Assembly: GCA_964016885.1 (NCBI GenBank)
Contig: OZ024751.1
Span: 10,106,001 to 10,170,000, forward strand
Origin: Eledone cirrhosa
Lineage: Eukaryota
Length of the DNA: 64,000 bases
Direction: 5' to 3'
Positions 11,311 through 55,210 of the stretch are shown in pieces. Under the pieces are notes generated by a model. That model had not been told where the DNA came from. It worked only from the letters and a program-made list of their open reading frames with translations, and ran no database searches. Position numbers and translations under genes: made by a program. The first letter of the stretch is position 1. Each line of letters starts with the position of its first letter.

Positions 11311-11729
11311 TCAGTAGTTGCACCAGTCTTCAGCAATCCAGCTAATAAGAAACGCATGGCGTTTATACATATCATCTGGAACTTTGCTGCTTTCCAAGTA
11401 AGGCACAGAGGACCCTTTCAGCTGCTCCAAGAAGTTTCTAAAAGGGTCCACAAAACCTCGGCCAATTGTGATGATGCCTCGTTGATCTCTTGAAGACTGA
11501 GCGCTCCGTGGAATTCCAACCGTCGAAGCTGGTGTACATACCTCCATCATGCCACTATCTGCTTGTAAAGGCTGGATTCCTTTGATGTAGAATTCACTAG
11601 CCCCATGGCACTGGAGGGTAGCAAGAGGCACCATTGTTAATGCTTCAGCCACAACAATTATTCCAAGTGTTGTTCCAACATATAGATGACCAGAAATAAT
11701 ATTCATAGCTGTCACCAGACAGGTTTTCT
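11311..11729 (-). CDS. LRRK1: Terminal coding exon of an LRRK1/Lrrk-like leucine-rich repeat kinase (C-terminal WD40-like region)
   Basis: Acceptor ttttttttttccccag at 11730; peptide KTCLVTAMNIISGHLYVGTTLGIIVVAEALTMVPL..IITIGRGF..LISWIAEDW then TGA resembles, from memory, the invertebrate Lrrk C-terminus (LYIGTTWG, TIGR, W..W); phase fits the upstream exon. Confidence 0.75.
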
Positions 11730-13640: not shown

Positions 13641-13733
13641 TTTTGGGTCTTTTAACATTTGCGACTGCAGACTCGCAGTCAAGTGTTGACTCTTGAAGGT
13701 GGGTGTGAACATTCCACCTCACAACGGTAGAAC
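13641..13733 (-). CDS. LRRK1: Internal coding exon (93 bp) of the LRRK1-like gene
   Basis: ttttaaatttag acceptor, gtgagt donor, phase 1 at both ends; encodes (G)STVVRWNVHTHLQESTLDCESAVANVKRPK(K), joining both neighbouring exons in frame. Confidence 0.8.
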
Positions 13734-14169
13734 CTAAATTTAAAAGTAACAAAAAATCATGTGAAATGAAAACTAAATAAATTCCTCCAGAGATGGGTGT
13801 ACAGACGATGTAGAAGGAAGGTAAGAGAAGTGTTCCAGGAATGGGAGAAGTGAGGAGGGGTGTAGTGATAAATTGAAGAGATAGAGCTCATCTTATCTTA
13901 CCAAATAAAATAATGATGTACTACAGTATAACCTTATATATCATTAGATAGGTAGATATAGACAGACAGACACACAGACAGACAGACAGACAGATAGATA
14001 GATAGATAGATGAGATGGAAAGAAATGAGAGCTGGCTTTATACAATAGTTGGCGCTATGCAGTAATATGGACTGAAACATACATCTAGTAGGCACCTCTG
14101 ACCCACTGTGCCCCCACCCATACACTTCCGAGGTCCCAACACCTACCCACCCATTTCTGTCCACACCAC

Positions 14170-14970
14170 CCTTACACTGTAAAGTTATGTTGGTATCACA
14201 ACAAAAAAATCACCCAGCCCACACTGTAAAGTGGTTGTGTAGGAATCAGAACAAAAAATCACCCAGCTCACTCTGTAAAGTGGCCATGAAGGAGTTACAA
14301 TAAAAATCACCCAGCCCTCACTGTAAAGTGGCCATGAAGGAGTTACAATAAAAATCACCCAGCCCTCACTGTAAAGTGGCCATGAAGGAGTTACAATAAA
14401 AATCACCCAGCCCACACTGTAAAGTGGTCATGTAGGTGTCATGACAAAAAGCACCCAGCCCACACTATAAAGTGGTTATGTAGGAATCACAACAAAAAGC
14501 ACCCAGCCCACACTGTAAAGTGGTTGTGTAGGAATCACAACAAAAAGCACCCAGCCCACACTGTAAAGTGGTTGTGTAGGAATCATAACAAAAAGCACCC
14601 AGCCCACACTGTAAAGTGGTTGTGTAGGAATCACAACAAAAAGCACCCAGCCCACACTGTAAAGTGGTTGTGTAGGAATCACAACAAAAAGCACCCAGCC
14701 CACACTGTAAAGTGGTTGTGTAGGAATCACAACAAAAAGCACCCAGCCCACACTGTAAAGTGGTTGTGTAGGTGTCATGACAAAACGCAAACAACCCACA
14801 CTGTAAATGTGGTTGGTATTAGAAGGGGCATCCAGCCATAGAAACCAAGCCAGAAACAGTTCTATATGAGCAAGACACGGTTACCGGACCAAACATGCCT
14901 CTAACAGGACAACCCGTCTAACCCATGCTAGCATGGAAAATGGGCATTAAACAATGGTGATGATAATGAT
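14170..14970 (+). repeat. 48-bp minisatellite grown from an RTE/SINE 3' UTR, followed by the normal element tail
   Basis: Unit AAAAAGCACCCAGCCCACACTGTAAAGTGGTTGTGTAGGAATCACAAC about 13 times, then AGGGGCATCCAGCC..CATGCTAGCATGGAAAATGG..(GAT)n. Confidence 0.9.
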
Positions 14971-15024
14971 ACACATGCACAATACATATATACAGCTACT
15001 ATATATTTATTATCTATTTTTACA

Positions 15025-15145
15025 TTGAGTTCAAATCCCGCCGATGTTAACTTTGCCTTTCATCCTTACGGGGTCGATAAAATAAAGTACCAGTAATGCA
15101 CTGGATTAATTGCTGGCCTTGTGCCAAACGTAGAAACAATTATCT
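15025..15145 (+). mobile_element. SINE family A, 5'-truncated
   Basis: B box plus family body. Confidence 0.85.
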
Positions 15146-15544
15146 ATTTTTACATTACATTTTATACACAATAGCATTGTGTGCACAATAGCATTTTGGT
15201 TACAAGGCATGACGCAGTAGGGTTGAACCCCAAACCATGTGGTTACAAGTTATACTTGTTACCCACACAGCCATCACAGTACCTTACACAGGTATATTAT
15301 ATATCTACTTATACATCATTCTACCAAATATTTATTTATAATCAGTCTATCTGTCTCTGTCCATCAAACTGATTATCTAGTTATTATATCTAATTTTTTA
15401 CATAATCTACCTCCCCATCTACCTACCTATCTATCCATTTATCTGTCTATCTATCCATTGATCTGTCTATCCATCAATCCATTTATCTATCTATCTATTT
15501 ATTTGTCTGTCCACCTACTCCATCTATCTGTTTATCAATCTGTC

Positions 15545-16275
15545 TATCTGTCTCTACTCCATCTATCTCTATCTCTCTCTACTCCATCCCTCTCTCTACT
15601 CCATCCCTCTCTCTACTCCATCCCTCTCTCTCTCTCTCTACTCCATCTCTCTCTCTCTCTCTACTCCATCTCTCTCTCTTTCTACTCCATCTCTCTCTCT
15701 TTCTACTCCATCTCTCTCTCTCTCTCTCTACTCCATCTCTCTCTCTACTCCATCCCTCTCTCTACTCCATCCCTCTCTCTACTCCATCTCTCTCTCTACT
15801 CCATCTCTCTCTCTACTCCATCTCTCTCTCTACTCCATCCCTCTCTCTACTCCATCTCTCACTCTACTCTATCTCTCTCTCTACTCCATCCCTCTCTCTA
15901 CTCCATCCCTCTCTCTACTCCATCTCTCTCTCTACTCCATCCCTCACTCTACTCCATCCCTCTCTCTACTCCATCTCTCACTCTACTCCATCTCTCACTC
16001 TACTCCATCTCTCTCTCTACTCCATCTCTCTCTCTACTCCATCTCTCTCTCTACTCCATCTCTCTCTCTACTCCATCTCTCTCTCTACTCCATCTCTCTC
16101 TCTACTCCATCTCTCTCTCTACTCCATCCCTCTCTCTACTCCATCCCTCTCTCTACTCCATCCCTCTCTCTACTCCATCCCTCTCTCTACTCCATCCCTC
16201 TCTCTACTCCATCCCTCTCTCTACTCCATCTCTCTCTCTACTCCATCTATCTCTCTACTCCATCTATCTATCTAT
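15545..16275. repeat. CT-rich minisatellite (CTCTCTACTCCATC(C/T)CT, ~17 bp)
   Basis: Direct inspection. Confidence 0.9.
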
Positions 16276-16844
16276 CCCATCTAACAACCCATTTATCTAG
16301 CTATATATCAACTTATCTATCTGCACATCTGCCCTATCAATCTCTCCATCTGTCAGCCAACATCAGATAAACACAAACTGTTGGCTTCTTCACAACTTTC
16401 AAATATTAGGTTGGCAAGACAACTTGCCATGTCGGGCATTGCTTTTGCCAGTGGGAAGAAACCTTTAAACAAACGAACTTCAATGACTATCAGAAAATAA
16501 TTAATAAGATGGAGTAGGTTTTCTGCTAAAATCATGTTACGTTTGCTGAAGCAAAGACACGAGGCAGAGCAGAGCAAGCCGATGATGATGATGAAACTCA
16601 TACCAACCGCTGTTGCCAAACAAAAACATGTCTTCCATGGCAGTAATTTGGACAAAGTTAATTTCCACACCAATAAGATACTATATGAAGCAATGGGGGG
16701 AACAAAGAAGAAAGAAAATGAAGAGAGGAAAGAGAGAGAGAAAGAAATGAAAATGAAAGAACATAAATGATGTTTAGATGAAAGGAAAGGAAGTAGAAGA
16801 GGACAGAAGACAATAACAAAGAAAGAGGATGACAACACCTAACG

Positions 16845-17725
16845 AGGAGTGGACAGATGTGAAGTAGACAGGTGTGGAGTGGACAGGTGTGAAGTAACCA
16901 AGTGTGGAGTGGACAGTTGTGGATTGGACAGGTGTGGAGTGGACAGGTGTGGAGTGGACAGGTGTGGAGTAGACAGATGTGAAGTAGACAGGTGTGGAGT
17001 AGACAGGTGTGGAGTGGACAGATGTGAAGTAGACAGGTGTGGAGTGGACAGATGTGGAGTAGACAGGTGTGGAGTGGACAGGTGTGGAGTACACAGATGT
17101 GGAATGGACAGGTGTGAAGTGGACAGATGTGGAGTGGACAGATGTGAAGTAGACAGGTGTGAAGTGGACAGATGTGGAGTGGACAGGTGTGGAGTGGACA
17201 GATGTGAAGTAGACAGATGTGGAGTGGACAGATGTGGAGTAGTCAAGTGTGGAGTAGTCAGGTGTGGAGTGGACAGATGTGGAGTGGACAGGTGTGAAGT
17301 AGACAGATGTGAAGTAGACATATGTGGAGTAGATAGATGTGGAGTGGACAGGTGTGGAGTAGACAGATGTGGAGTAGACAGATGTGGAGTGGACAGGTGT
17401 GGAGTGGACAGGTGTGGAGTGGACAGATGTTGAGTAGACAGGTGTGGAGTGGACAGGTGTGGAGTGGACAGATGTGGAGTAGACAGATGTGGAGTGGACA
17501 GGTGTGGAGTACACAGATGTGGAATGGACAGGTGTGAAGTGGACAGATGTGAAGTGGACAGGTGTGGAGTACACAGATGTGGAATGGACAGGTGTGGAGT
17601 AGACAGGTGTGGAGTGGACAGGTATGAAGTAGACAGGTGTGGAGTAGACATGTGTGGAGTAGACGGGTGTGGAGTGGAGAGATGTGAAGTAGACAGGTGT
17701 GGAGTGGACAGGTGTGGAGTGGACA
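16845..17725. repeat. 15-bp minisatellite (GGAGTGGACAGGTGT)
   Basis: Direct inspection; gives the DRCGV and STPHL pseudo-ORFs. Confidence 0.95.
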
Positions 17726-18194
17726 AATAGATAGGTGACAGCAGGTAAACATACAGGTATCAATACAAGGATATATATAGGTAACAGGTGATAGCAGATG
17801 ACAGTGAGGAGGAAGTAAGTAGAAAGATATACAGGTGACAGGTGGTAGACAGACACAAAGATATATAGGTGACATGTGACAGGTGGTAGACAGACACAAA
17901 GATATATAGGTGACAGCAGATGGTAGACAGACACAAAGATATATAGGTGACAGGTGGTAGACAGACACAAAGATATATAGGTGACAGGTGACAGCAGATG
18001 GTAGACAGACACAAAGATATATAGGTGACAGGTGATAGAAAATAGGTGACAGAAGGTAATAGAGAGAGATAAATAGAGAGCCATTTAGAAGACAGGTGAC
18101 AGAAAGTTAAAAGTAGTCAGGGGAGAGGGGGATAAGAGGGGTGAGAGAGAGAGGATGAGAGAGAGGGCGGGTAATAAAGAAAGTTATATAGGTG

Positions 18195-18195
18195 A

Positions 18196-18239
<44 letters not shown>

Positions 18240-18392
18240 AAAATAAAGAAAGGAAAGAGAAAGAAAGAAAGAGAAAGAAAGAGAAAGAGAGAAAAAAAGG
18301 AAAAAAAAGAAAAAAGAAAGAAAAAGAAAGAGAAAATAGAAAGAAAAAGAAAGAGAAAGAAAGAAAGAAAGAAAGGAAAAGAAACAAAGGAA

Positions 18393-18484
<92 letters not shown>

Positions 18485-18790
18485 AAAAGTGATGATGAAA
18501 TGATAAAAGATAAATGGAGCTAAATTCAGCTAAAGTAAATATGGTGGAATAAAGAGGACAGCAGAATTGATGAGCAAGAGATAGCAGTGAGGAGGTGGTG
18601 GTGGTGGTGTGGTGTATAAGGCGCTGGGGGGTGGAGAAGGATTTATGAACAGCTTCTACTTGCCTATAGCAGAAAACTGTGAAAGAAAGTAAAAGTATTG
18701 CCAAGGAAAAAATGGTTTAATCCACAGAATACATCTTTACAATATTATTGATGTTGTTGCTGTTGATGATAATGATGGTGGTGGTGGTGT

Positions 18791-18824
<34 letters not shown>

Positions 18825-19680
18825 GATGATGAGATGATGGTGGTGGTGTTGATGATGAGATGATGGTGGTGGTGTGTTGATTTCTTGTTGTTGGTGGTGT
18901 GGTGTGGTGTGGTGTTGTGTTGATTTCTTGTTGGTGGTGGTGTGGTGTTGTGGTGTGGTGTTGTGTTGATTTCTTGTTGGTGGTGGTGGTGTGTTGATTT
19001 CTTGTTGGTGATGGTGTGGTGTTGTGTTGTGTTGTGTTGATTTCTTGTTGTTGGTGGTGTGGTGTTGTGTTGTGTTGATTTCTTGTTTGTGGTGTGGTGT
19101 TGTGTTGTGTTGATTTCTTGTTGGTGGTGTGGTGTTGTGTTGATTTCTTGGTGGTGGTGTGGTGTGGTGTGGTGTGGTGTGGTGTGGTGTTGATTTCTTG
19201 TTGTTGGTGGTGTGGCGTTGCGTTGATTTCTTGTTGTTGGTGGTGATGTGGTGTTGTGTTGTGTTGATTTCTTGTTGTTGGTGGTGTGGTGTGGTGTTGT
19301 GTTGATTTCTTGTTGTTGGTGGTATGGTGTTGTGTTGATTTCTTGTTGTTGATGATGGTGGTGTGGTGTGGTGTTGTGTTGATTCTTTGATGGTGGTGAT
19401 GGTGTGGTTTTGGTGGTGTGGTGTTGATGGTGGTGTTGCAGTTGATTGTGGTGTTGCAGTTGATTGTGGTGTGGTGTTGATTTCTTTGTAGTCGTGGTGG
19501 TGGTGCTGGTGGTGTTGTAGTTGTGGTGGTGGTGTTATTGTGTTGATTTGTTGATGGTGGCAATGATGATTGTGGTTGTGTTGTAGTTGATGGTGATGTG
19601 GTGTTGTGTTGAATTGATTTCTTGATGGTGGTGGTGTTGTGTTGATTCCTTGATGGTGGTAGTGGTGTTCTCATTGTTGA
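18195..19680. repeat. (GAAA)n tract followed by GTT/GGT-rich low complexity
   Basis: Direct inspection. Confidence 0.9.
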
Positions 19681-19712
19681 GGATAGTTCAGGTAGCAGAG
19701 CATTAATATCCA

Positions 19713-20042
19713 ATATGACAAAAGACCAAAGTTAACAACATAAACTGATTCTTTAATTTCTACGTCTGTTTCAATATGGTTACAATGTCACATGCATACA
19801 TAAACAATTGGAAACAATTATCAATTATTAACACCATACATAATACGTATAACTGCATTTCTTCAGGAAAATGTGAGAAACTTGGTAAACTTTGTTCTTT
19901 CTTACATTTTCCTGAAGAAATGCAGTTATACGTATTATGTATGGTGTTAATAATCGATAATTGTTTCCAGTTGTTTATATGCATGTGACATTGTAACTGT
20001 ATTGAAACAGACGTAGAAATTAACCTTGGTCTTTTGTCATAT
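19713..20042. mobile_element. Fold-back element P1 with a hammerhead motif in each arm
   Basis: Arms 19753-19880 and 19898-20023 are near-perfect reverse complements, with outer arms ATATGACAAAAGACCAA/TTGGTCTTTTGTCATAT. Confidence 0.85.
19908..20019 (+). ncRNA. Minimal type I hammerhead ribozyme motif (mirror copy on minus strand, 19757-19870)
   Basis: TTTC-CTGAAGA(19912-19918)-AATGCAGTTATA..TGTAACTGTATT-GAAA(20004-20007)-C AGAC-GTA-GAAA; stem II 12 bp with G-U pairs, stem I 4 bp. Confidence 0.75.
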
Positions 20043-20179
20043 CAAATATATATGTGGTGAGAGCTGATCTTAAATCGTTGAGATTCAGAAAAGAGATGAT
20101 GGAGAAACAGGGTAAGTGGAGAGATACTATGCTGAAAAGGACCCATCCACCCCATGCAAGTATGGAAAAATGGACATAA

Positions 20180-21255
20180 AAATGATGATGTCGAGGTCAG
20201 ATTTTCATCATTTTGGGGTTTATACAATAAAATACCAGTAAAGTACTAGGGTTGATTTAATCAACTTCCCCTACTCTATAATTGCTGGTTTTGTGCCTAG
20301 AACACAAACCACTATTATTATTATTATTATTATTATTATAAGGGCGGTTGATTGGCAGTATCGGTAGAGGGTCGGATGCCATGCTTTGCAGCAAAGAGTT
20401 ACGGTCCTTGCCATTCTGAGTTCAAATCCCGCTGAGGTTAGTTTTACTTTTCATCCTTACGGAGTCGATAAAATAAAGTACCAGTTATGCACTGGGAAGA
20501 ATTTAATTGACTTTCCCCTCTCCCTCAAAATTGTTGACCTTGTGCCTAAATCAGAACCCATTATTATTGCATTTCCAGTATCGGTAGAGCATCAGAAAAC
20601 AGGCTTTATGTCATAGAATTACAGCCCTTTATATTCTGAGTTCAAATCCTGCTGAGGTTAGCTTTACTTTTCATCCTTGCAGAGTCAATAAAATAAAGTA
20701 CCAGTCATGCACTGTGGTCAATTTAATCGACTTTCCCTTTCCCAAAAGATTGTTGGCCTTGTGCCTAAATCAGAAACCATTGGTGGATTGGCAGTATCAG
20801 TAATGGGTCGGACGCCATGCTTTGAAGCATAGAGTTACCTCCCTTTATGATCTGAGTTCAAATCCCGTCGAGGTTAACTTTGCCTTTCATCCTTATGGGG
20901 TCGATAAAATAAAGTACCAGTAATACACTGGGATAATTGCTGGGCTTGTGCCAGTGGATTGGCAGTATCGGTAGAGGGTCGGACACCATGCTTTCCAGCA
21001 TAGTTACGTCCCTTTACGATCTGAGTTCAAATCCCGCCGAGGTTGACTTTGCCTTTCATCCTTACGGGGTCGATAAAATAAAGTACCAGTAATGCACTGA
21101 GTAATTGCTGGCCTTGTGCCTAAAGTAGAAACAATTATTATTATTATTATTATTTAATGTACCAGTAATGCACTGGGGGTGAATTTAATCAACTTGCCCA
21201 TCTCCCCAAATTGCTGGCCTTGTGCCTAAATCAAAAACCATTATTATTATTATTG
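20180..21255 (+). mobile_element. Head-to-tail array of about 6 SINE family A copies
   Basis: Repeated GGATTGGCAGTATCGGTAGAG heads, GAGTTCAAATCCC B boxes and (ATT)n tails. Confidence 0.9.
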
Positions 21256-21674
21256 AAATATTACAAGAATCTGTCAGAATTGGTAGAACATTGAACTGTA
21301 TGACTTTCAATACATCATTAGATTTTCTTATGTTTTAGGTTGAAATCTCACCAACACCAACTTTGCATTTCATTATTTGGGGTTAAGTTAAGTAGGAGTC
21401 AAAAACTGAAGTCAATACACACATGTACACAAACACATACATGCACACACACACGTACACATGCACACACACAAACACACACATACAAAGACAAACACAC
21501 ACATACAAACAAAAACACACACACATACATACATACAAACACACATGCACACTAGGAGTCAAAAACTGAAGTCAATACACACATGTACACAAACACATAC
21601 ACATAAATATACACACAGACGTACACATGCACACACACACACACAAACACACACATACAAACACATACAAACAC

Positions 21675-21712
<38 letters not shown>

Positions 21713-22676
21713 AAACACTGACACCCAGAGGCAGATGTATACAGACACATACATAAAATAAGTATCAACTCAATACCGGACTCAATATATACACACACAT
21801 ACAAACATACATATATATATATATATATAGATACAAGCACATAAAAACACATACAAACACATACTCACACAAGCATATACCCATGCACACATACAAACAC
21901 ACACATATACAAGCATATACAAACATGCACACAAACACATATACAAGCATACACACACACACACATATACAAACATACACACACAGAGACACACACATAT
22001 ACAAACATACACACACAGAGACACATATATACAAGCATACACACACAGACACACACATATATACAAGCATACACACACAAAGACACACATATATACAAGC
22101 ATACACACACAGATACACACATATACAAACATACACACACAGACACACACATATCATATACAAGCATACACACACACATACTTTCATCTTTTTGTCTGTT
22201 CTCTGCAGGCTTCAGGTTATTAAGTTGGCAGTTGAAGGATTTCCTTTCCAAATTAGCTGCTTTTCTTCTACCTCCCTCTCTAACTCTCTCTCTCTCTACC
22301 TCCCTCTCTACCTCTAACTCTCTCTCTCTACCTCTACACCTTTCTCTACCTCTCTATCTCTACCTCTCTCTCACCCACTCTTTCTCTACCTCTGTAGCCC
22401 CCTGTCTCTCAACCTCTACCTCTTTTTCAACCTCTCTCAAACTCTATCTCTCTCTCTACATGTATCTCTCTCTACCCCCTCTCTCTCTCTCTCTTTACCT
22501 CCATCTTTCTCGTTCTCTCTTTACTTCTGTTTATCCATATAGTAATAGTAGCAGTAGTAATAGTAGTAGTAGTAATAGTAGTAGTAGCAGCAGCAGCACC
22601 AGTAGTAGTAGTAGTAGTAGTAGTAGTACTTATAATGGTCATATTATGGGTTTTATGAAACCATTATTATCTTATA

Positions 22677-23345
22677 ACGGTGGATTGGCAGAATCGGTAG
22701 AGGGTCGGACGCCATGCTTTGACGCATAGAGTTACGGCCCTTGCCATTCTGAGTTCAAATCCCGCCGAGGTTAACTTTACCTTTCATCCTTACGGGGTCG
22801 ATAAAATAAAGTACCAGTAATACACTGGGTAATTGCTGGCCTTGTGCCAAAAGTAGAAACAATTATTATCATATAATAATTATTTCTACTATAGGCACAA
22901 GGCCAGTAATTTGGGGGGAGGGGAAGGTCGATTAAATCAACTCCAGGTCATTACTGGTACTTTATTTTATCGACCCCATAAGGATGAAAGGTAAAGTTAA
23001 CCTCGGGGGGATTTGAACTAAGATCATAAAAGACCATAACTCTATGCTGCAAAGCATAGAGTCCGTCTCTCTATTGATACTGCCAAATAATAAAAATGAT
23101 TGTGTTCAGTGCTCAGGTGCACTACCACTCATCAAAGGTGCATGTGTAGTACAAAGAATAATTGTTTCTACTTTAGGCACAAGGCCAGCAATTACCCAGT
23201 GCGTTACTGGTACTTTATTTCATCGACCCCGTAAGGATGAAAGCAAAGTCAACCTTGGCGGGATTTGAACTCAGATCGTAAAGGGACGTAACTATGCTGG
23301 AAAGCATGGCGTCCGACCCTCTACCGATACTGCCAATTCACCGCC
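22677..23345. mobile_element. SINE family A cluster: one plus copy tail-to-tail with two minus copies
   Basis: Plus 22677-22868; minus about 22875-23085 and 23157-23345. Confidence 0.9.
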
Positions 23346-23411
23346 CTTGTAGTACAAAGAATATTGTACAAAAGTTAGGAAAGTGAACAGTGTTATATCT
23401 TTTGATTATAC

Positions 23412-26011
23412 ACACGTGTGTATGGAGGGGGAGTATCAGGTGTGTATGGAGGGGGAATATCAGGTGTGTATGGAGGGGGAGTATCAGGTGTGTATGGAGG
23501 GGGAGTATCAGGTGTGTATGGAGGGGGAATATCAGGTGTGTATGGAGGGGAAATATCAGGTGTGTATGGAGGGGGAGTATCAGGTGTGTATGGAGGGGGA
23601 ATATCAGGTGTGTATGGAGGGGGAGTATCAGGTGTGTATGGAGGGGGAGTATTACGTGTGTATGGAGGGGTAATATCAGGTGTGTATGGAGGGGGAGTAT
23701 CAGGTGTGTATGGAGGGGGAATATCAGGTGTGTATGGAGGGGGAGTATCAGGTGTGTATGGAGGGGGAGTATCAGGTGTGTATGGAGGGGAAATATCAGG
23801 TGTGTATGGAGGGGGAGTATCAGGTGTGTATGGAGGAGGAGTATCACGCGTGTATGGAGGGGGAGTATCAGGTGTGTATGGAGGGGGAGTATCAGGTGTG
23901 TATGGAGGGGGAGTATTACGTGTGTATGGAGGGGTAATATCAGGTGTGTATGGAGGGGGAGTATCAGGTGTGTATGGAGGAGGAGTATAATGTGTGTATG
24001 GAGGGGGAATATCACGTGTGTATGGAGGGGGAATATCACGCGTGTATGGAGGGGGAGTATCAGGTGTGTATGGAGGGGGAGTATCAGGTGTGTATGGAGG
24101 GGGAATATCAGGTGTGTATGGAGGGGGAGTATCAGGTGTGTATGGAGGGGGAATATCAGGTGTGTATGGAGGGGGAGTATCAGGAGTGTATGGAGGGGGA
24201 GTATCAGGTGTGTATGGAAGGGGAATATCACGTGTGTATGGAGGGGGAGTATCAGGTGTGTATGGAGGGGGAGTATCAGGTGTGTATGGAGGGGGAGTAT
24301 CAGGAGTGTATGGAGGGGGAGTATCAGGTGTGTATGGAGGGGGAGTATCAGGAGTGTATGGAGGGGGAATATCACGTGTGTATGGAGGGGTAATATCAGG
24401 TGTGTATGGAGGGGGAGTATCAGGTGTGTATGGAGGGGGAATATCACGTGTGTATGGAGGGGTAATATCAGGTGTGTATGGAGGGGGAGTATCAGGTGTG
24501 TATGGAGGGGGAGTATCAGGAGTGTATGGAGGGGGAATATCACGTGTGTATGGAGGGGTAATATCAGGTGTGTATGGAGGGGGAGTATCAGGTGTGTATG
24601 GAGGGGGAGTATCAGGAGTGTATGGAGGGGGAATATCACGTGTGTATGGAGGGGTAATATCAGGTGTGTATGGAGGGGGAGTATCAGGTGTGTATGGAGG
24701 GGGAGTATCAGGAGTGTATGGAGGGGGAATATCACGTGTGTATGGAGGGGTAATATCAGGTGTGTATGGAGGGGGAGTATCAGGTGTGTATGGAGGGGGA
24801 ATATCAGGAGTGTATGGAGGGGGAATATCACGTGTGTATGGAGGGGTAATATCAGGTGTGTATGGAGGGGGAGTATCAGGTGTGTATGGAGGGGTAATAT
24901 CAGGTGTGTATGGAGGGGGAGTATCAGGTGTGTATGGAGGGGGAATATCAGGTGTGTATGGAGGGGGAGTATCAGGAGTGTATGGAGGGGGAGTATCAGG
25001 TGTGTATGGAAGGGGAATATCACGTGTGTATGGAGGGGGAGTATCAGGTGTGTATGGAGGGGGAGTATCAGGTGTGTATGGAGGGGGAGTATCAGGAGTG
25101 TATGGAGGGGGAGTATCAGGTGTGTATGGAAGGGGAATATCACGTGTGTATGGAGGGGGAGTATCAGGTGTGTATGGAGGGGGAGTATCAGGTGTGTATG
25201 GAGGGGGAGTATCAGGAGTGTATGGAGGGGGAATATCAGGTGTGTATGGAGGGGGAGTATCACGTGTGTATGGAGGGGGAGTATCAGGTGTGTATGGAGG
25301 GGGAGTATCAGGAGTGTATGGAGGGGGAATATCAGGTGTGTATGGAGGGGAAATATCAGGTGTGTATGGAGGGGAAATATCAGGTGTGTATGGAGGGGGA
25401 GTATCAGGTGTGTATGGAGGGGGAGTATCAGGTGTGTATGGAGGGGGAGTATCAGGTGTGTATGGAAGGGGAATATCACGTGTGTATGGAAGGGGAATAT
25501 CACGTGTGTATGGAGGGGGAGTATCAGGTGTGTATGGAAGGGGAAATATCAGGTGTGTATGGAGGGGAAATATCAGGTGTGTATGGAGGGGAAATATCAG
25601 GTGTGTATGGAGGGGGAGTATCAGGTGTGTATGGAGGGGAAATATCAGGTGTGTATGGAGGGGGAATATCAGGTGTGTATGGAGGAGGAATATCAGGTGT
25701 GTATGGAGGGGAAATATCAGGTGTGTATGGAAGGGGAATATCAGGTGTGTATGGAAGGGGAATATCAGGTGTGTATGGAGGGGGAGTATCAGGTGTGTAT
25801 GGAGGGGGAGTATCAGGTGTGTATGGAGGGGAAATATCAGGTGTGTATGGAAGGGGAATATCAGGTGTGTATGGAAGGGGAATATCAGGTGTGTCTGGAG
25901 GGGGAGTATCAGGTGTGTATGGAGGGGGAGTATCAGGTGTGTATGGAGGGGGAGTATCAGGTGTGTATGGAGGGGAAATATCGGGTGTGTATGGAGGGGG
26001 AGTATCAGGTG
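23412..26011. repeat. 24-bp satellite (CAGGTGTGTATGGAGGGGGAGTAT), about 108 copies
   Basis: Highly homogeneous tandem array; a unit length divisible by 3 explains the 680-876 aa ORFs. Confidence 0.98.
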
Positions 26012-26039
26012 TAGTGTTGGCAAATTTCATAAATCATAA

Positions 26040-27087
26040 TAACAATGGTTTCTGAATTAGGCACAAGACCAACAATTTGGGGGGAAGGGGAAAGTCAATT
26101 AAATCGATCACAGTGCATTACTGGTACTTTATTTTATTGACCCCCATGAGGTTGAAAAGTAAAGCTAACCTCGGGAGGATTTGAACTCAGAAAGTAAAGG
26201 GTCGTAACACTATGCTACAAAGCATGTTGTCTGACGCTCTACCGATAATGCCAATCCACTGCCCTGACAACAATAATAATTGTTTCTACTTTAGGCACGA
26301 GGCCAGCAATTTGAAGAGGAAGTTAAGGTCAATTAAATCGACCCCGACCCCAGTGCATTACTGGTACTTTATTTTATCAACCGTAAAAGGATGAAAGGAA
26401 AAGTTGGTCCCAGCTGGATTTGAACTCAAAACATAAAAAGCCATAATTAAACACTGCAAAACATTAATCTGACATTGTCAATTCACCTAATAAGGGTTTC
26501 TTATATAGGCACGAGGCCAGCAATTATCCCAGTGTATTACTGGTACTTTATTTTATCGACCCCGTAAGGATGATAGGCAAAGTTAACCTCGCCGGGATTT
26601 GAACTTAGACCATAAAGGGCCGTAACTCTTTGCTACAAAGCATGGTGTCCGACCCTCATGGTTTCTTATATAGGCACAAGGCCAGCAATTTGGGGGGAGG
26701 GGAAAGTCAATTAAATCGACCCCAGTGCATGACTGGTACTTTATTTTATCGATCCATAAGGATGTAAGGCAAAGTTAACCTCGGCGGGATTTGAACTCAG
26801 ACCATAAAGGGAGGTAACTCTATGCTGCAAAGCTTGGCGTCTGTTGCTCTACCGATACTGCCAATCCACCACCCTAATAATATTAATAATAATAATTGTT
26901 TCTACATTTGGCACAAGGCCAGCAATTATCCCAGTGCATTACTGGTACTTTATTTTATCGACCCCCGTAAGGATGAAAGGCAAAGTTAACCTCGGTGGGA
27001 TTTGAACTCAGAATGGCAAGGGCCGTAACTCTATGCTGCAAAGCATGGCGTCCGACCCTCTACTGATACTGCCAACCCACCGCCCTA
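26040..27087 (-). mobile_element. Array of about 5 SINE family A copies
   Basis: Repeated GGCACAAGGCCAGCAATT..GGATTTGAACTCAG..TGCCAATCCACCGCCC. Confidence 0.9.
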
Positions 27088-27996
27088 ATGTTTTCTAATT
27101 AAGAAACAAGGCCAATAACTCCATGCTATCAAGTCATCCTAAAATATCTGTAGCCATATTCTAGTCAAATTTTATTCATGTAACAATGTATGTATCTGTG
27201 TGCATGTATGTGTGTGTGTGTGTGCATGTATGTGTGTGTGTGTTTGTATATGTGTGAATGTATGTGTGTTTGTATCTGTGTGAATGTATGTGTGTGTGTG
27301 TCTTTGTATATGTGTGAATGTATGTGTGTGTGTGTATCTGTGTGCATGTATGTGTGTGTGTGTTTGTATATGTGTGAATGTATGTGTGTGTGTGTGTTGG
27401 TATATGTGTGAATGTATGTGTGTGTGTGAATGTATGTGTGTGTGTTTGTATATGTGTGAATGTATGTGTGTGTGTGTGTTTGTATATGTGTGAATGTATG
27501 TGTGTGTGTTTGTATATGTGTGAATGTATGTGTGTGTGTATTTGTATATGTGTGAATGTATGTGTGTTTGTATATGTGTGAATGTATGTGTGTGTGTGTT
27601 TGTATATGTGTGAATGTATGCGTGTGTGTGTTTGTATATGTGTGAATGTATGTGTGTTTGTATATGTGTGAATGTATGTGTGTGTGTTTGTATATGTGTG
27701 AATGTATGTTAGTAAGTGCATGAAGTTGTTTGCATGCATTTGAGTACATATGTGCATGTGATTGTATATATTTGTCCTTTGTGTTTGTGTGTATGTTTGT
27801 ATGTGCACATGGTTATGTGCATCTATTTGTGTGCATATGTGCATGTGTTAATGTATGCATTTGTATGTACATGTCTGTGCACGTGGTTGTGTGCAATATG
27901 TTTTTGTGTATGTATTTCAGTATATGTGTGGGTGTGTGTGCTTCTGTATATGTGTGTGTGTGTGTGTGCATGTGTATTTGTGTGCATTTTACGTAC

Positions 27997-28202
27997 CTGG
28001 GTAGTTGTAGGAGAAAACGTAGTCAGTGTTTGTGAGGGCCGATGACCAGGTAACAAGGAGATAACAGACACTTTGTCCCTTCTCGTCAGCTAGGTGACCA
28101 ACTGTCGTAGCTTTTACATCCTGTTTCTGCTGCCAGTCGAGAAGATCGGTGATATCAAAAACTTCCAACATACAATCAGTCGTCCCTCTCCACAGTAAGC
28201 AA
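27997..28202 (-). CDS. LRRK1: Internal coding exon (206 bp) of the LRRK1-like gene
   Basis: ttttcaattttcatttccag acceptor, gtacgt donor; CLLWRGTTDCMLEVFDI..TDYVFSYNYP(G) resembles the Lrrk LW.G and VFS..YPG motifs; ends in phase 1, matching exon 13733-13641. Confidence 0.8.
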
Positions 28203-32343: not shown

Positions 32344-32636
32344 TTAATGCAGTCTTATGTAATACTAGATGTTTTAGAATTAAAACAGACCCGTGCGTGT
32401 GAGTGACTGTGTGTGTGAGTGTGTGACCATGTATGTTCTGTTTTTATTTTTGCTTGTTTTTCTTTAATTTTTACCAACAGAGAGCGAGCATGATTCTATC
32501 ACAGAAACAAGATATTTTCATTGGAATTTTGACATCAACTAATTAAGTATGTATATGATTGTGTGTGTGTGTGCGCACATATATGGATGATATTGCATGT
32601 ATGGATCTGTATGTTTTTAGTTATATGTACATATAT

Positions 32637-34862
32637 CGGGGAGAAGTGTTTCGGCAATGATAATGGTGTACTTGCCCTCACTGATACTGATAAGAAGATA
32701 GCTTGGAAGTGTCACTACGAGAGACTATTAAATGAGGAGAATAAATGGGAAAAAGATAGTCTGCCCCAAATCGATCCAATAGAAGGTCCAGCAGTGCAAG
32801 TTAAAGGTAGTATAATAAGTAAGGCAATCAAAGATATGAAGACAGGCAAGGGAGCTGGGCCTTCAGAGATAGTTGCTGAGATGTTGAAGGCATCTGGAAT
32901 GGTGGGACACACTATGGTCGCCCGTATAGTAAACCAAGGAATACAGAATGGGATCATACCAAAAGACTGGTGTAGCAGCATCATCATTAACTGCTACAAG
33001 GGTAAAGGGGATGCTCTAGATAAGGGAAACTATAGAGGCATTAAGTTAGTTGACCAGGTCATGAAGGTCACAGAAAGAGTTATAGCGCAACTAATCAGAG
33101 AGCGAATTGATCTAGATGAAATGCAGTTTGGGTTTGTGTCAGGTAAAAGTACCACAGACGCTCTTTCCCTTGTACAACAACTACAAGAGAAGTACCTAGC
33201 TAAAAGTAAACCCCTCTACTTAGCTTTTGTAGGCCTGGAGAAAGCCTTTGACAGAGTCCCCCACTCCATTATCTGGTGGGCTCTTAGAAAACTAGGTGTA
33301 GATGAATGGCTTGTGAGAGCTATACAAGCCATGTATAAAGAAACAGTCAGTAAGGTTAGAATTAACAATGAATATTGTGAAGAATTTAGTGTAAAAGTTG
33401 GTGTTCATCAAGGCTCAGTCCTTAGCCCCCTCCTATTTATTATTGCCCTTCAGGCTATAACAGAGGAGTTTAAGACCAGCTGCCCATGGGAACTCCTATA
33501 CGCAGATGATCGAACTCTCATAGCTGAATCTATGGCTGAACTAGAGAAGAAATTCCAAACATGGAAGAATGGCCTAGAATCAAAAGGCCTTAAAGTTAAC
33601 TTGTCTAAGACTAAAGTTCTAGTTTGTAGAAAGGAAAATAAGGCACAGGTGCCCTCAGGGAAATGGCCATGCTCAGTGTGTAGGAAAGGAGTAGGCAGAA
33701 ATTCCATTTTATGTCCCAAATGCAAACTATGGGTACATAAAAGATGTAGTGGGATCAGAGGTAAACTATCTAAGAACATAGATTTTATATGTGGCCGATA
33801 CTCAGTTGCAATAAGTAGCAAGTGCCCACAGGATACTGGCTCCTTCTATTACCCAGATGGTTCTATAGAAATAGTGGACACTTTCTGTTACCTGGGTGAC
33901 AAAATCAGCAGTGGTGGTGGGTGCTCTGAAAGTACAGTAGCCAGAGTCAGAACGGGATGTAAAAAGGTTAGAGAGCTTATACCGCTGTTGGCCACAAAAG
34001 GTTTCTCTCTAAAAAGGAAAGGCAGATTGTATGATACCTGTATATGAACAGCAATGCTACATGGCAGTGAGACATGGGCATTGTGTGCAGAGGACCTGCG
34101 CAGACTGGAAAGGAACGAAGCATGCATGCTCCGTTGGATGTATAATAGTAATATACGTGAACGGCAAAGGATAAATGAACTAAGTGAGAAATTACGAATA
34201 AGAGGGATCAGATGCTGTTTACTTGAGAGAAGACTACGTTGGTATAGTCACGTGATGCGCATGAAAGACGACAGCTGTATAAAAAAGTGCAGGGCGATCA
34301 AAATTGATGGAAGTTACGGAGTAGGTAGACCCAGAAAAACCTGGGACGATTTGATAAATTCCGACCTTACACACTTGCACCTCTCTAAGACAATGTCACT
34401 GATCAAGATCTTTGGTGCTAAGCAGTAATACAGAAGACACACCTTTCCTATGTACAAAGCGAAACCTACAGTCAGTAGGCACCTCTTAACCAAATATACA
34501 TCCCAATCCACTACCCCTACCCTATCCTCCCATTCCCACCAACACCACCCTCTCTCTGTAAAGTTGGCACCACAACATCCAGTCCAAATAAATGAGATAA
34601 TGAGATTGAGATCGTGTAGGTGTCACAACAAAAAACACACAGTCCACGCTGTAATGTGGCCGGGTAGGTAACACGGTAAAAAAGTTCCCAGTTCCACACT
34701 GTAAATGTGGTTGGTGTTAGGAAGGGTATCCAGCCGTAGAAAACCTGCCAGATAGTCCTATATGAGCGAGACACGGTCACCCGACCAACCTTGCCTCAAG
34801 TGGGACAACTCCCGCCTAACCCATGCTAGCGTGGAAGATAGACATATGATGATGATGATGAT
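32637..34862 (+). mobile_element. RTE-clade LINE, 5'-truncated: RT with PHD finger plus 3' UTR and (GAT)n tail
   Basis: [40 protein letters not shown]-like Cys/His cluster, LHGSETW; in-frame TGA at 34045. Confidence 0.95.
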
Positions 34863-36464: not shown

Positions 36465-36950
36465 AGTATTATTCAAAATGTTAATAAATGAAAAATATTC
36501 TCATAATCAAAATATATATTTTATTATACATATGTCAAAGGTACAATGGTGTTTATGTACGTTTTCATCAGACAAAATATATGATTTGATATGTGACATA
36601 CCTCTACAGTTTTGATTATTCAATTCCAGTATTGGCAGTGATTTATTTCATCAAATCTCAATGTCTTTTATGAAATAAATCACTGCCAATAATGGAATTG
36701 AATAATCAAAACCATAGAGATATATCACATATCAAATCATATATTTTGTCTGATGAAAACGTACTTAAACACCATTGTACCTTTGAAATATGTATAATAA
36801 AATATATATTTTGATTATGAGAATATTTTTCATTTATTAACATTTTGAATAATATTAAACACTCCAGGAAAATCTCTTGTTGAGTGCATCTAATCTATTG
36901 TAATATTGTATTCGTTGAGTAATCAACGAACCATATTAATCTTTGGTTAT
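36465..36950. mobile_element. Fold-back element P2 (arms 36465-36651 and 36670-36856) plus ~95 bp unpaired tail, between (TA)n tracts
   Basis: About 187-bp near-perfect inverted arms; hammerhead motif inside. Confidence 0.9.
36739..36807 (+). ncRNA. Minimal type I hammerhead ribozyme motif
   Basis: ATATATTTTGT-CTGATGA(36750-36756)-AAACGTAC..GTACCTTT-GAAA(36785-36788)-T ATGT-ATA-ATAAAATATAT; stem I 11 bp. Confidence 0.85.
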
Positions 36951-37461
36951 ATATATATTGGAAACGCTACTTCGTAGAATCGAGATGTATCTGAGGATCT
37001 TGCGATTTCAGAGTCAGGTTTGATCATTGCATCGATCGTGCTTTGAGCTGGTTGCCAGAGAAACGATTGTAATATGTCTAATAAATCTTATTCGTCGCAC
37101 CACTGATTTTCCATTTCTTATGTGATATATATATGGGATAACAAGTTATCGTTTTAGGTAATCCAGTTAAAGGTTGAGTACTCTGTACTATGAATAGTTT
37201 TAACGTACGGCGTTGTTTGACTCAACAAGAGGTTTCCTTAGTTAGATAGCAAGTTTGTGAGAGTTCCCATGTAGGTTATTCTTGGAGTAATGATAGTGAA
37301 AGAGTGTTCCAATGATTTGATCAGAGACACACTGTATTTAAGGACGAGTGATGCAATTTCGAGTGATCAGCGGACTTTTGACTCTCCTGATCAATGAAAC
37401 AATTGTTAATACTGTAAATAAAACCCTTTTTGTACAGCCGAACATGTTATTCTCCACTCTT

Positions 37462-39466: not shown

Positions 39467-42400
39467 ATCATCATCATCATCATCATCAACGTTTAACGTC
39501 CGTGTTCCACGCTTGCATGGGTTTGGACGGGGGTAGTCCCACTTGAGGCAAGAGTGATTGTCTTGCTCGCATAGGACTGTCTGGCAGGTTTTCTACAGTT
39601 GGATGCCCTTCCTAACACCAACCACATTTACAGTGTGGGGCTGGGAGGTTTTTACCGTGTTGCCTACACGGCCACATTACAGCGTGGACTGTGTGTTTTT
39701 TTGTCGTGACACCTACACGATCTCATTTGTTTCGGCCTCGATGGCGCGGCACCAACATAACTTTACATAGAACGGGGTGGTGTGGATGGGGTGGGGGTGG
39801 TGGTGGTGGGACGGGGTGTATTTTGTTAGAGATGCCTACTGGCTGGAGTAGGTTTTACTATATATTTAGGTAAGGCGGGTCTTCTCTGTGACTGAGTACC
39901 GCCAAAGTTCTCGGTCCAGTGACATTGTCTTGGAGAGGTGTAAGTGTGTGATGTCGGAGTTTATCAGCTCGTCCCAGGTTTTTCTAGGTCTGCCTATTCC
40001 GTGACTACCGTCTATCTTTATTGCCCTGCACTTTGTTATACAGCTATCGACTTTCATGCGCATCACGTGTCCATACCAACGTAGCCTTCTCTCGAGTAAA
40101 CAACATCTGATCCCTCTTATCTCTAATTTTTTCCTTAGTTCGTTTATGCTTTGCCGTTCACGTATATTACTGTTACACATCCAGCGGAGCATGCAAGCTT
40201 CGTTCCTCTCTAGTCTGCGTATATCCTCTGCACACAATGCCCAGGTCTCACTGCCATGCAGCATTGCTGTTCGTATGCAGGCATCATACAACCTGCCTTT
40301 CATTTTTAGGGAGAACCCTTTAGCAGCTAATAGTGGTATAAGCTCTCTGAACTTTTTCCAACCAGTTCTGACTCTAGCTACAGTACTTTCAGAGCACCCT
40401 CCCCCACTGCTGATTTTATCGCCCAGGTAACGGAAGCTGTCCACTATTTCTATAGAACCCTCTGCGCAATTGAAAGAGCTAGTATTTTGTGGGCACTTGC
40501 TGCTACTTATTGCACCAGAGCACCGGCCACATGTAAAATCTATGTTCTTAGTTAGCTTACCTGTGATCCCACTACATCTTTTATGCACCCATACTTTGCA
40601 TTTAGGACATAAAATGGAGTTTCTACCTACGCCTTTCCTACACACCGAGCACGACCATTTCCCAGAAGGGACCGCCGCCTTGTTTTCTTTCCTACAAACT
40701 AGTACTTTGGTCTTAGCCAGGTTAATTTTAAGTCCTTTTGACTCTAGGCCGTGCTTCCATGTTTGGAATTTCTTCTCTAGCTCGGCCATTGATTCCGCTA
40801 TGAGTGTCAGGTCGTCTGCGTATAGGAGTTCCCATGGGCAGCCTGTCTTGAACTCCTCTGTTATAGCCTGAAGGGCAATAATAAATAGTAGTGGTCTGAG
40901 AACAGAGCCCTGATGGACGCCAACTTTTACGCTAAACTCTTCACTATATTCGTTGTTAATTCTAACCTTGCTGACTGTTTCTTTATACATGGCTTGTATA
41001 GCCCTCACAAGCCATTCGTCAATGCCTAGTTTTCTAAGAGCCCACCAGATAATGGAGCGGGGGACTCTGTCGAAGGCTTTCTCCAAGTCGACAAAAGCTA
41101 AGTAGAGGGGTTTACCTTTAGCTAGGTACTTCTCCTGTAGTTGTCGTACTATGAAAAGAGCGTCTGTGGTACTTTTGCCTGACACAAACCCGAACTGCAT
41201 TTCATCTAGATCAATTCTCTCTCTGATTAGTTGCGCTATTACTTTTTCCGTGACCTTCATGACCTGGTCGATTAATTTAATGCCTCTATAGTTACTCCTA
41301 TCTAGGGCGTCTCCTTTACCCTTATAACAGTTAACGATGATGCTGCTATGCCAGTCCTTCGGAACAACCCCATTCTGTACGACTTGGTTAACTATGCGGG
41401 TGACCATGGTGTGTCCCACCGTGCCAGATGCCTTCAGCATCTCAGCAACTATTTCCGAAGGCCCAGCCGCCTTACCCGTCTTCATATCCTTGATTGCCTT
41501 ACTTATTATACTCCCCTCGACTAACACTGCTGGTCCCTCTATTGGGTCGATATGGGGGAGACTGTCTTTCTCCCATTTATTCTCCTTATTTAGTAGCCTT
41601 TCATAGTGACACTTCCAAGCTACCTTCTTATCAGCGTCGGTGATGGCAAGTGTGCCATCGTCGTTTAGTACACACTTCTCCCCGACAATATCACGGTTTT
41701 CCTTGACGTATTGCCTAGCAATCCTGAACACCTCACGTTTTTGGTCATCGCGTTGTAGAACATGCTTGAACTTTCTTTCCTCAGCTTCCCTTCTTGCTAA
41801 GTACACTTGTCTCCTAGCTTCCCTCCTGGCCACTTGATAGTCTTCTCTACTTCCCCCATCCCGCCATACTTTCCAAGCCTGCTTTTTGGCCTTAATTGAC
41901 CCCTCCACCTTACTGTTCCACCACCATGTTACTCTCCTCCTGCCTACAGGCCTGCTCCAGCCACAGACTTCGTCTGTCGCCAACAGCAGGTTTGCTTTCA
42001 GAAATTCCCACTCTCCCTCTATATTGTCCGACTCTAAATGTTCTTCCTTACTGTCGAAAGCATCAAGTAATATGCTTTGAAATTTATTCCTGGCTGTGGG
42101 GTCCTTTAGCTTCCATATTTTTCTCCTGAGGATAGTCCTCTTCTGCTGTCGAGTACGTCTCGTCCTGACTATGAGGTCGCTAATTATCAGTCTATGTTGG
42201 GAGGTGCATTCTTCATGGGGGAGGGATTTAGTGTTTACAACAGACACTCTGTCACGTCTTCTGGTAAGGATATAATCTACCTGGCTTGTGTGTTCCCCGG
42301 ATCTATAGGTGATCAGGTGATTGTCACGTTTTTTGAAGTTAGTGTTACAGATAGTTAGGTTATTTGCATCACAGAATTCCAGGATTCTGGAGCCTTCCTC
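39467..42400 (-). mobile_element. RTE-clade LINE, young, 5'-truncated within the AP endonuclease
   Basis: Uninterrupted frame 42400-39866: [21 protein letters not shown] (APE end), RT with YADD, intact PHD finger; 3' UTR and (GAT)n tail; flanked by (TA)n. Confidence 0.97.
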
Positions 42401-46520: not shown

Positions 46521-46617
46521 AATGTAAGTAATTCCGTCGGAAAAGTCCAGGAAAAAAGAGTGCTCTATGTAGGTAACAGAGCTTAATAGTTATGTAATAA
46601 ACAACATAAGGCAATTA

Positions 46618-46678
46618 TTCCATTTACCAGTGGTTTCTTAAAAGCAAAAAATTTTTGCTTTCAATCCTCAGAATGAAA
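46618..46678 (-). ncRNA. Minimal type I hammerhead ribozyme motif in a Penelope pLTR copy
   Basis: Minus: TTTCATT-CTGAGGA-TTGAAAGCAAAA..TTTTGCTTTTAA-GAAA-CCACTG-GTA-AATGGAA; stem I 7 bp. Confidence 0.85.
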
Positions 46679-46822
46679 AAATCCTGGTCTATTTATTGAA
46701 TTTGGATTTTAAAAACAAAAATGCAATCTATATGAAGGTGAGGTTGGAGAAAGAAGAAGGAAAGGAAAAATAAAATAAAACCACACATGCAAATACACAC
46801 ACACACACACAAAAGCATACAT

Positions 46823-47673: not shown

Positions 47674-47774
47674 TATATATATATATGTGTGTGTGTGTAA
47701 AACTCAATCTTAGATAATTCATATGAACCCTACATATATATAGTAGTAAAGTAATAAGCAACATAAGGCAATTA

Positions 47775-47835
47775 TTCCATTCACCAGTGGTTTCTTAAAA
47801 GCAAAAAAATGTTGCCTTCAATCCTCAGAATGAAA
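47775..47835 (-). ncRNA. Second copy of the same hammerhead, cleavage triplet GTG (probably inactive)
   Basis: Direct repeat of 46602-46690; GAAACCACTGGTG instead of GTA. Confidence 0.7.
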
Positions 47836-47909
47836 AAAACCTGGTCTATCTACATATACATATACATACACACACACATATATATATATATATATACATA
47901 CATATACAT

Positions 47910-54865: not shown

Positions 54866-55210
54866 ATATTAATAAATGGAAACTATATTTATTAAACCAT
54901 ATTTATTTTATTATACATATTTCAAGGGCCACCAAGGCAAATTATTTGTTTTATAAATAAATATTGACATACCCGGAAAAAAAGACAACCTTAATGGTTG
55001 GAGCTTCTGTATTTTATCTGATGAAAGCGCACCATAATTTGCCTTGGTTGCCCTTGAAATATGTATAATAAAAATATGGTTTTATAAATATAGTTTCCAT
55101 TTCTTAATATATTGTGTATTTACTCCACTAATCTGTTAAGTGCTTTATATCAGTTATAAAAAATGTTTAAGCTTGTTGAATCCCAACAAATTAAATATAA
55201 CCTCTGCATA
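54861..55210. mobile_element. Fold-back element P4 (arms 54861-54945 and 55034-55115) plus tail, between (TA)n tracts
   Basis: Inverted arms of about 85 bp; hammerhead related to that in P2. Confidence 0.85.
55012..55073 (+). ncRNA. Minimal type I hammerhead ribozyme motif
   Basis: TTTTAT-CTGATGA(55018-55024)-AAGCGCACCA..TGGTTGCCCTT-GAAA(55056-55059)-T ATGT-ATA-ATAAAA. Confidence 0.85.

Follow-up and report, generated by a model that had tools for sequence, protein, structure and literature searches.

Two 5'-truncated Penelope-like ends joined head to head in an intron of a putative LRRK-type gene of Eledone cirrhosa, with hammerhead motifs predicted to be inert

The window analysed here, a 64,000-nucleotide stretch of the Eledone cirrhosa genome, contains a palindrome (P1) that carries a hammerhead ribozyme motif on each strand. 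We are highly confident that P1 represents two 5'-truncated ends of a Penelope-like element, arranged head to head in an intron of an LRRK-type gene, likely as the product of one insertion event, and that its motifs are predicted to be inert. The analysis established that P1 belongs to a repeat family, is arranged head to head, bears a tail on a single arm and sits in an intron, and that its family is linked to an endonuclease frame; P1 is an ordinary example of an insertion footprint already published for Penelope-like elements.

The feature extends from 19667 to 20049, and its parts are listed in Table 1. The palindrome reported by the earlier note is present, although the span given there, 19713..20042, proved too narrow. 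The two arms align over ~150 nt, with 143 of the 153 aligned columns identical, and differ by ~10 substitutions and two indels, one of 2 nt and the other a loss of 21 nt from the plus arm directly past helix I. Folding of the minus strand yielded −204.6 kcal/mol (z = −36), a stability reached by none of 100 shuffled sequences, with ~17–20 nt left unpaired at the tip of the hairpin. The tail remnant is confined to the minus arm, where it stops at a GGT-rich microsatellite; most tailed family copies elsewhere extend to position ~755 of the reference. On the plus arm, the 3' end is followed by a short AT run. Both arms are shorter than 220 nt and have kept no ORF. As a candidate target-site duplication, the 6-nt repeat flanking P1 (19662–19667 and 20054–20059) is weak, the left flank being the GGT microsatellite.

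Table 1. Coordinates of the palindrome, its host intron and exons, and the tandem hammerhead pair of the same window
Feature	Position in window	Strand	Basis
Tail remnant (~39 nt), past the family's usual 3' end	19667..19705	-	matches reference 618-656
Inverted, 5'-truncated pseudo-LTR arm; sense in host pre-mRNA	19706..19880	-	family alignment
5'-to-5' arm junction, ~2 nt microhomology	19879..19880	.	sequence versus family copies
Pseudo-LTR arm in direct orientation, truncated at its 5' end and running to the 3' end usual for the family	19879..20049	+	family alignment
Minimal type I hammerhead, antisense to host gene	19908..20019	+	core and helix readout, strict descriptor
Minimal type I hammerhead, sense to host gene	19757..19870	-	core and helix readout, descriptor listing
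Host intron (putative), 14.3 kb, phase 1, GT-AG	13734..27996	-	exon ends, frame, homologue
Upstream flanking exon	27997..28202	-	P0001 residues 162-244, 42%
Downstream flanking exon	13641..13733	-	X1 contig; P0001 residues 243-277
Last exon, coding part	11311..11729	-	X1 contig; P0001 residues 272-422, 62%
Direct tandem minimal hammerhead pair, other family, sense	46584-46695 and 47741-47852	-	strict descriptor

Each arm contains a minimal type I hammerhead, comprising the core elements CUGANGA and GAAA, an NUH cleavage site and helices I–III. In the plus motif, CUGAAGA is found at 19912–19918, GAAA at 20004–20007 and the GUA cut site after 20015, with a helix II of 12 bp (two of them G-U) around a 61-nt loop. 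The corresponding elements of the minus motif are located at 19866–19860 and 19772–19769, with the GUA cut site after 19761, and 10 of the 12 helix II pairs form around a 63-nt loop. Together with the arm alignment and the fold, these readouts bear out the description in the earlier note of a palindrome with an intact core on each strand, with CTGAAGA, GAAA and GTA kept on both arms, a 12-bp stem II closing a ~60-nt loop and two stem II mismatches in the minus copy; the 5' ends predicted there, at 20016 (plus) and 19760 (minus), are correct given the cut sites. Two further properties, absent from that description as is the 21-nt deletion of the plus arm, are the short helices I (4 bp) and III (2 bp) of both motifs and the pair 10.1–11.1, which in both arms is A-U and not G-C. 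Among 48 other family copies (65 full matches less 15 duplicates gave 50 rows, two of them P1), this pair is A-U in 30 and U-U in 15. Helix III and loop 3 of P1 are palindromic at 4 of 8 positions, short of what dimer formation demands. Both arms lack one pair of the dimer helix, a change shared by 13 of the 48 other copies, and the dimer duplex was calculated at −2.5 kcal/mol for P1, whereas the form seen most often in the family (16 of 48 copies) reaches −6.7 kcal/mol.

A strict hammerhead descriptor, applied to the window and the 200 kb upstream of it (264 kb in all), gave 12 matches, as opposed to none in each of 10 shuffled controls. The plus arm of P1 passes this descriptor and the minus arm is listed with only four of the first six stem II pairs. 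Rfam returned no match on the window at gathering score, and relaxing the threshold to E = 10 brought up no family of hammerheads; the hits at that level were generic miRNA-hairpin and chance matches, all below gathering, and a reading of P1 as a miRNA was rejected. According to passages of PMC4209133, the minimal hammerheads of metazoan Penelope-like elements are of type I, with a helix I of 4 bp and a long helix II, as in P1, and have a 2-bp helix III with a near-palindromic loop, as in P1's family; dual motifs on opposite strands, 100–700 bp apart, are reported in the same source. P1 departs from the motifs described there in its loop II of ~60 nt, in having A-U for the conserved G10.1-C11.1, in the missing bulge after A9 and in the loss of one dimer pair from loop III.

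P1 is one copy of a dispersed repeat. A search of the 3.0-Gb genome with P1 gave at least 86 matches, obtained from 40 scored of 317 candidates. In their best pieces the other loci reach up to 90% identity to P1. Most of them hold one arm, which runs to a fixed end point beyond which AT repeats follow; some copies continue for ~140–185 nt past the usual end, into the tail. The extent of 5' truncation is variable and two sites account for 78 of 79 3' ends, as expected for insertions of an endonuclease-bearing Penelope-like element. Intact cores were found in 29 of the 48 other copies. Core positions are better conserved (95%) than the remaining positions (89%), a difference that counts against the favoured reading but may stem from selection acting on the source elements. 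Changes in paired positions across the 48 copies amount mostly to decay, with nearly no double-sided changes, and covariation therefore lends the structure no support.

The identity of the element is indicated by two family loci (L083/L115 and L091/L116), in which a broken frame with a CX4CX2C motif and a GIY-YIG-like part lies on the same strand, upstream of the 3' UTR and the hammerhead. This frame shares 55% identity with a sister family's open frame (E = 3e-55), whose Atlas neighbours carry PF01541 (GIY-YIG) and PF26215 (HTH_animal) in 12–18% of members, and 33% with a Pfam GIY-YIG match (E = 4e-4). A GIY-YIG endonuclease upstream of the pseudo-LTR (pLTR) was thus found in these two loci, as broken frames, despite a direct Pfam scan of two endonuclease frames that returned no family and no GIY-YIG. 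The genome-wide GIY-YIG search gave 10,596 candidates. Passages of PMC8557442 describe for Neptune and Nematis a CX2-5CxxC linker before GIY-YIG and a bias towards (TA)n insertion, both of which are seen in P1's family; the suggested assignment to Neptune/Nematis is based solely on the linker motif, CX4CX2C, present in the two loci. A reverse transcriptase (RT)-like frame was detected upstream in the sister-family locus L129, with an RVT_1 match (E = 1e-4) under the cut-off. No RT was found in the loci of P1's own family, L115 having no RT match, and no full-length RT-bearing member of this exact family was encountered when the loci were walked upstream. Copies spaced ~3.8 kb apart on C5 had been considered as an array of full-length elements, a candidate that was rejected as they are local duplications with no element ORF. 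The loci concerned, L061/L062 (G000:C5:60.68–60.70 Mb), form a ~3.8-kb local tandem duplication with one family copy per unit.

The recurrence of the head-to-head layout was assessed in a census of 75 loci (L001–L094 after removal of 15 duplicates and 4 larger stretches, all taken with flanks of 1.5 kb), which are best BLAST hits, so that the count is a biased lower bound. Opposed pieces were present in 14 of them, including P1, and in all 14 the pieces are joined 5' to 5'. A tail on one arm only was found in P1 and in 11 of the 13 other opposed loci. The combination seen in P1, an inverted pLTR placed head to head and a one-arm tail, corresponds to passages of PMC8557442 and PMC3846280, in which an inverted 5'-truncated copy in head-to-head position, with an optional tail, is typical of Penelope-like elements. 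The likeness extends to Pen2a of Adineta vaga (PMC3846280) and to the general scheme of PMC8557442 as far as these passages go, with an inverted 5'-truncated pLTR and a one-arm tail, and Pen2a-type insertions likewise show a small junction overlap, AT-microsatellite targets and a hammerhead in the pLTR. P1 differs from Pen2a-type insertions in having no ORF, arms of less than 220 nt and no clear target-site duplication, and its family differs in the length of the tail, ~140–185 nt versus the 30–40 bp mentioned in these two sources. Non-LTR retrozymes, as portrayed in passages of bioRxiv 10.64898/2026.07.22.740005 (see also PMC7229834), resemble P1 in being non-coding, in their type I hammerhead and in their Penelope origin; they are direct tandem repeats, whereas P1 is inverted with one motif per strand.

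We infer that the element's enzyme would have cleaved AT-rich DNA and primed one cDNA from each strand, one beginning at the usual end and the other inside the tail. Both cDNAs would have halted just upstream of the hammerhead and been joined through ~2 nt of microhomology. Arm-to-arm gene conversion probably maintained the similarity of the arms thereafter. The antisense arm precedes the sense arm in the pre-mRNA and would pair with it. Passages of PMC11167929 report that a Penelope enzyme cuts and extends both target strands and that two RT starts define the tail.

The arms of P1 are more similar to each other than any two other copies. Within the hammerhead span they differ at 5 of 121 sites (4%), while the 1128 pairs among other copies differ by at least 7.1% (median 17.6%), all above the P1 arms. 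Compared with the family majority, the arms share five substitutions and a 4-nt deletion. No younger subfamily that could have supplied these changes was found, a diagnostic 17-mer occurring genome-wide only in P1's two arms and other copies carrying at most two of the five substitutions. These private shared changes suggest arm-to-arm gene conversion as the simplest reading. A unique source element could also have supplied them; selection on the hairpin or on masking is unlikely, because a few mismatches would not dent an energy difference of 143 kcal/mol. Opposed loci of the same family, which mostly have longer spacers, show arm identities of 83–92% (overlap >20 nt), with the exception of L071 (97%). 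In the short-spacer pairs of a second family, arm identity is 96–99% (three pairs) versus 67–91% between loci, and the value for P1 is 96%.

The close similarity of the arms, 4% apart versus 8–10% from any other copy, would also be expected if the palindrome had formed later, by fold-back duplication of an older single-arm copy during DNA repair, or if it were a fold-back of the assembly. Among the pieces listed, the short-read contigs of X2 and X3 tile the left arm only, without differences, and no X1–X3 contig spans the junction, a pattern that would fit such an origin without being evidence for or against it. However, the arms stop at two different family-specific ends, the usual end and the tail, as in 11 other loci, and their 5' start points differ, while a late copy would include flank or give symmetrical ends. 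In addition, a read fold-back would not yield ~10 substitutions and two indels between the arms. Considering these points, we regard a late or artefactual origin as highly improbable and favour a single insertion of two truncated ends.

The three minus-strand exons of Table 1 have GT/AG ends and share a single open frame. The homologue P0001 (63% identical) matches the exons in order, with no gap across the intron of P1 and with the alignment carrying on into exons farther upstream. Since its residues 162–244 and 243–277 fall on the two flanking exons, no exon would be expected between them. A contig of run X1 joins the last two exons (record positions 27–459 and 467–561); the junction across P1's own intron is provisionally placed by splice sites, frame and homologue, not by RNA. 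The splice sites, the frame and the collinearity with P0001 agree with the earlier note in placing P1 between exons 27997 and 13733, with the minus-strand motif in the pre-mRNA; the motif is ~6 kb from the acceptor. At window position 11377, in the last exon, the transcript-like X1 contig differs from the assembly by a single base (T>G), which may be an allelic or a strain difference. Exons upstream matched protein kinase families (E = 1e-8 and 8e-10), with weak matches to Roc and COR-B that are both under the cut-off, and on the strength of these matches the host gene appears to be LRRK/ROCO-like, encoded on the minus strand. LRRK is the name for this domain order. Two host exons used as queries against PDB sequences gave nothing informative, and the Atlas look-up of P0001 gave WD40-like neighbours with low recognition.

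Other repeats are frequent in the window. Two opposed copies of a LINE-like repeat with an RT-like frame (32636–34401 and 39917–41685; 86–87% identical) lie ~5.5 kb apart in the next intron and could form long double-stranded RNA. A SINE-like repeat of ~170–220 nt is clustered, partly in tandem, at 20346–21120, 26050–27090 and many other places.

In the host pre-mRNA the antisense arm comes first, so the minus motif is transcribed after its complement, as the earlier note had it, and the masking by the long hairpin proposed there is reproduced by the computed folds. When the minus-strand RNA is folded as a whole, the predicted probability of every hammerhead pair is ~0, and the most stable structure retaining the hammerhead lies 142.6 kcal/mol above the hairpin; for the plus strand the difference is 143.8 kcal/mol. 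By these models, masking is an outcome of the geometry on either strand. For the lone minus arm, the predicted probabilities are 0.56 for helix II, 0.23 for helix I and ~0.01 for helix III, and these values predict no hammerhead junction for one arm on its own. A motif with a 2-bp helix III would need a partner, and no second copy of P1's family on the same strand was found in the window or in the 200 kb upstream. Owing to the missing same-strand partner, the 2-bp helix III, the weakened dimer loop and the A-U pair at 10.1–11.1, P1 would be a poor cutter, and the models indicate that it is probably inert even if unmasked. Passages of PMC4209133 report no cleavage by single minimal hammerheads and low cleavage by dimers, and PMC11167929 reports no cleavage by a Penelope hammerhead without protein.

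The earlier note had further suggested that the palindrome may act as a built-in off switch. Its masking component stands; an active ribozyme and a selected control, which a switch would also need, are not supported. A co-opted, regulated switch, in which the hairpin holds an active hammerhead off until unwinding or A-to-I editing frees it to cut the LRRK pre-mRNA, would be consistent with the two intact cores, the predicted masking and the compensating changes common to both arms in the long hairpin. Nevertheless, we consider it exceedingly unlikely. The barrier of 143 kcal/mol is far too high, and the sense (minus) arm is the weaker of the two, with 10 of 12 stem II pairs. The lone arm lacks a predicted helix III, the dimer helix is weakened and the 264 kb searched gave no partner on the same strand. 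With intact cores frequent in the family, the presence of two of them calls for no selection, and the layout recurs at many loci, the same geometry being present in all 14 opposed loci and in the published Penelope footprint. The reading is also weakened by an unmasked sense tandem pair that is tolerated in the next intron. Host-domesticated intronic ribozymes, namely CPEB3 (see PMC10919898) and amniote HH9 and HH10, resemble P1 in having a motif of self-cleaving type on the sense strand of an intron. CPEB3 and HH9/HH10 are single-copy, conserved and active as monomers, whereas P1 belongs to a multi-copy family, as one copy of a dispersed, decaying repeat. A literature search at the level of titles and passages returned no account of a regulatory switch in which an antisense arm masks a Penelope hammerhead.

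The unmasked sense pair, denoted 46671/47836, belongs to another family, with the two motifs 1.16 kb apart. The GUA site of 46671 is intact; 47836 has an intact core and the site GUG. The motifs have a palindromic helix III (−8.2 kcal/mol), with 7 bp in helix I and 12 bp in helix II; the two co-fold 7.4 kcal/mol better than apart, and no inverted partner was found within 5 kb. Presumably, judging by motif, the C-terminus of a Penelope-like endonuclease precedes the copy at 47.8 kb. According to these predictions, the pair is a better candidate than P1 for cleavage of the pre-mRNA.

Further hammerheads were noted in the window and beyond. A head-to-head palindrome of the second family is located at 36506–36815 (extending to ~36465–36850), with arms 98% identical and a change in the GAAA core of the minus motif, and a partial head-to-head pair of that family at 54891–55085 has a complete core on the plus strand only. 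Two more head-to-head palindromes of the second family were seen at L158:6060–6400 (arms 99%) and L163:2837–3250 (95–96%), the former between exons of the same LRRK-type gene. Unpaired minimal hammerheads of further families occur on the plus strand at 36991, 37593 and 61775, all antisense to the host gene, and two of them have a long loop II (spans of 85 and 96 nt), similar to P1.

This distribution raises the question of whether sense Penelope hammerheads harm pre-mRNAs, so that self-masked head-to-head copies outlast unmasked sense ones in introns. Within this gene, inverted pairs account for four motif remnants on the sense strand (P1; 36591, whose core is changed; the partial 54945; L158:6155), all three unpaired singles in the window are antisense, and tandem retrozymes are depleted from Xenopus introns according to passages of bioRxiv 10.64898/2026.07.22.740005. 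Yet these numbers are tiny, too small for a test, and the same gene tolerates the unmasked sense pair 46671/47836, with its palindromic helix III. Passages of PMC4209133 describe single minimal hammerheads with hardly any activity. Inverted pairs, moreover, are masked whichever way they lie, and should be found in introns even if no selection acts on them. We therefore consider such a survivor effect improbable, and place the same low confidence in the broader proposal that head-to-head stumps are self-silencing ribozyme cassettes, that introns keep sense hammerheads mainly when these are masked and that gene conversion preserves the mask.

For the family, the similarity of the arms has a bearing on dating: the arms of short-spacer Penelope palindromes appear homogenised, and arm identity would then underestimate their age. 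Passages of PMC8557442 treat the in vivo function of Penelope hammerheads as an open question. If head-to-head stumps were indeed self-silencing cassettes, the unmasked 46671/47836 pair would be the one cutting the LRRK pre-mRNA. Whether or not this holds, comparing masked, unmasked sense and antisense copies in introns across the genome could show if any Penelope hammerheads cleave the pre-mRNAs of their host.
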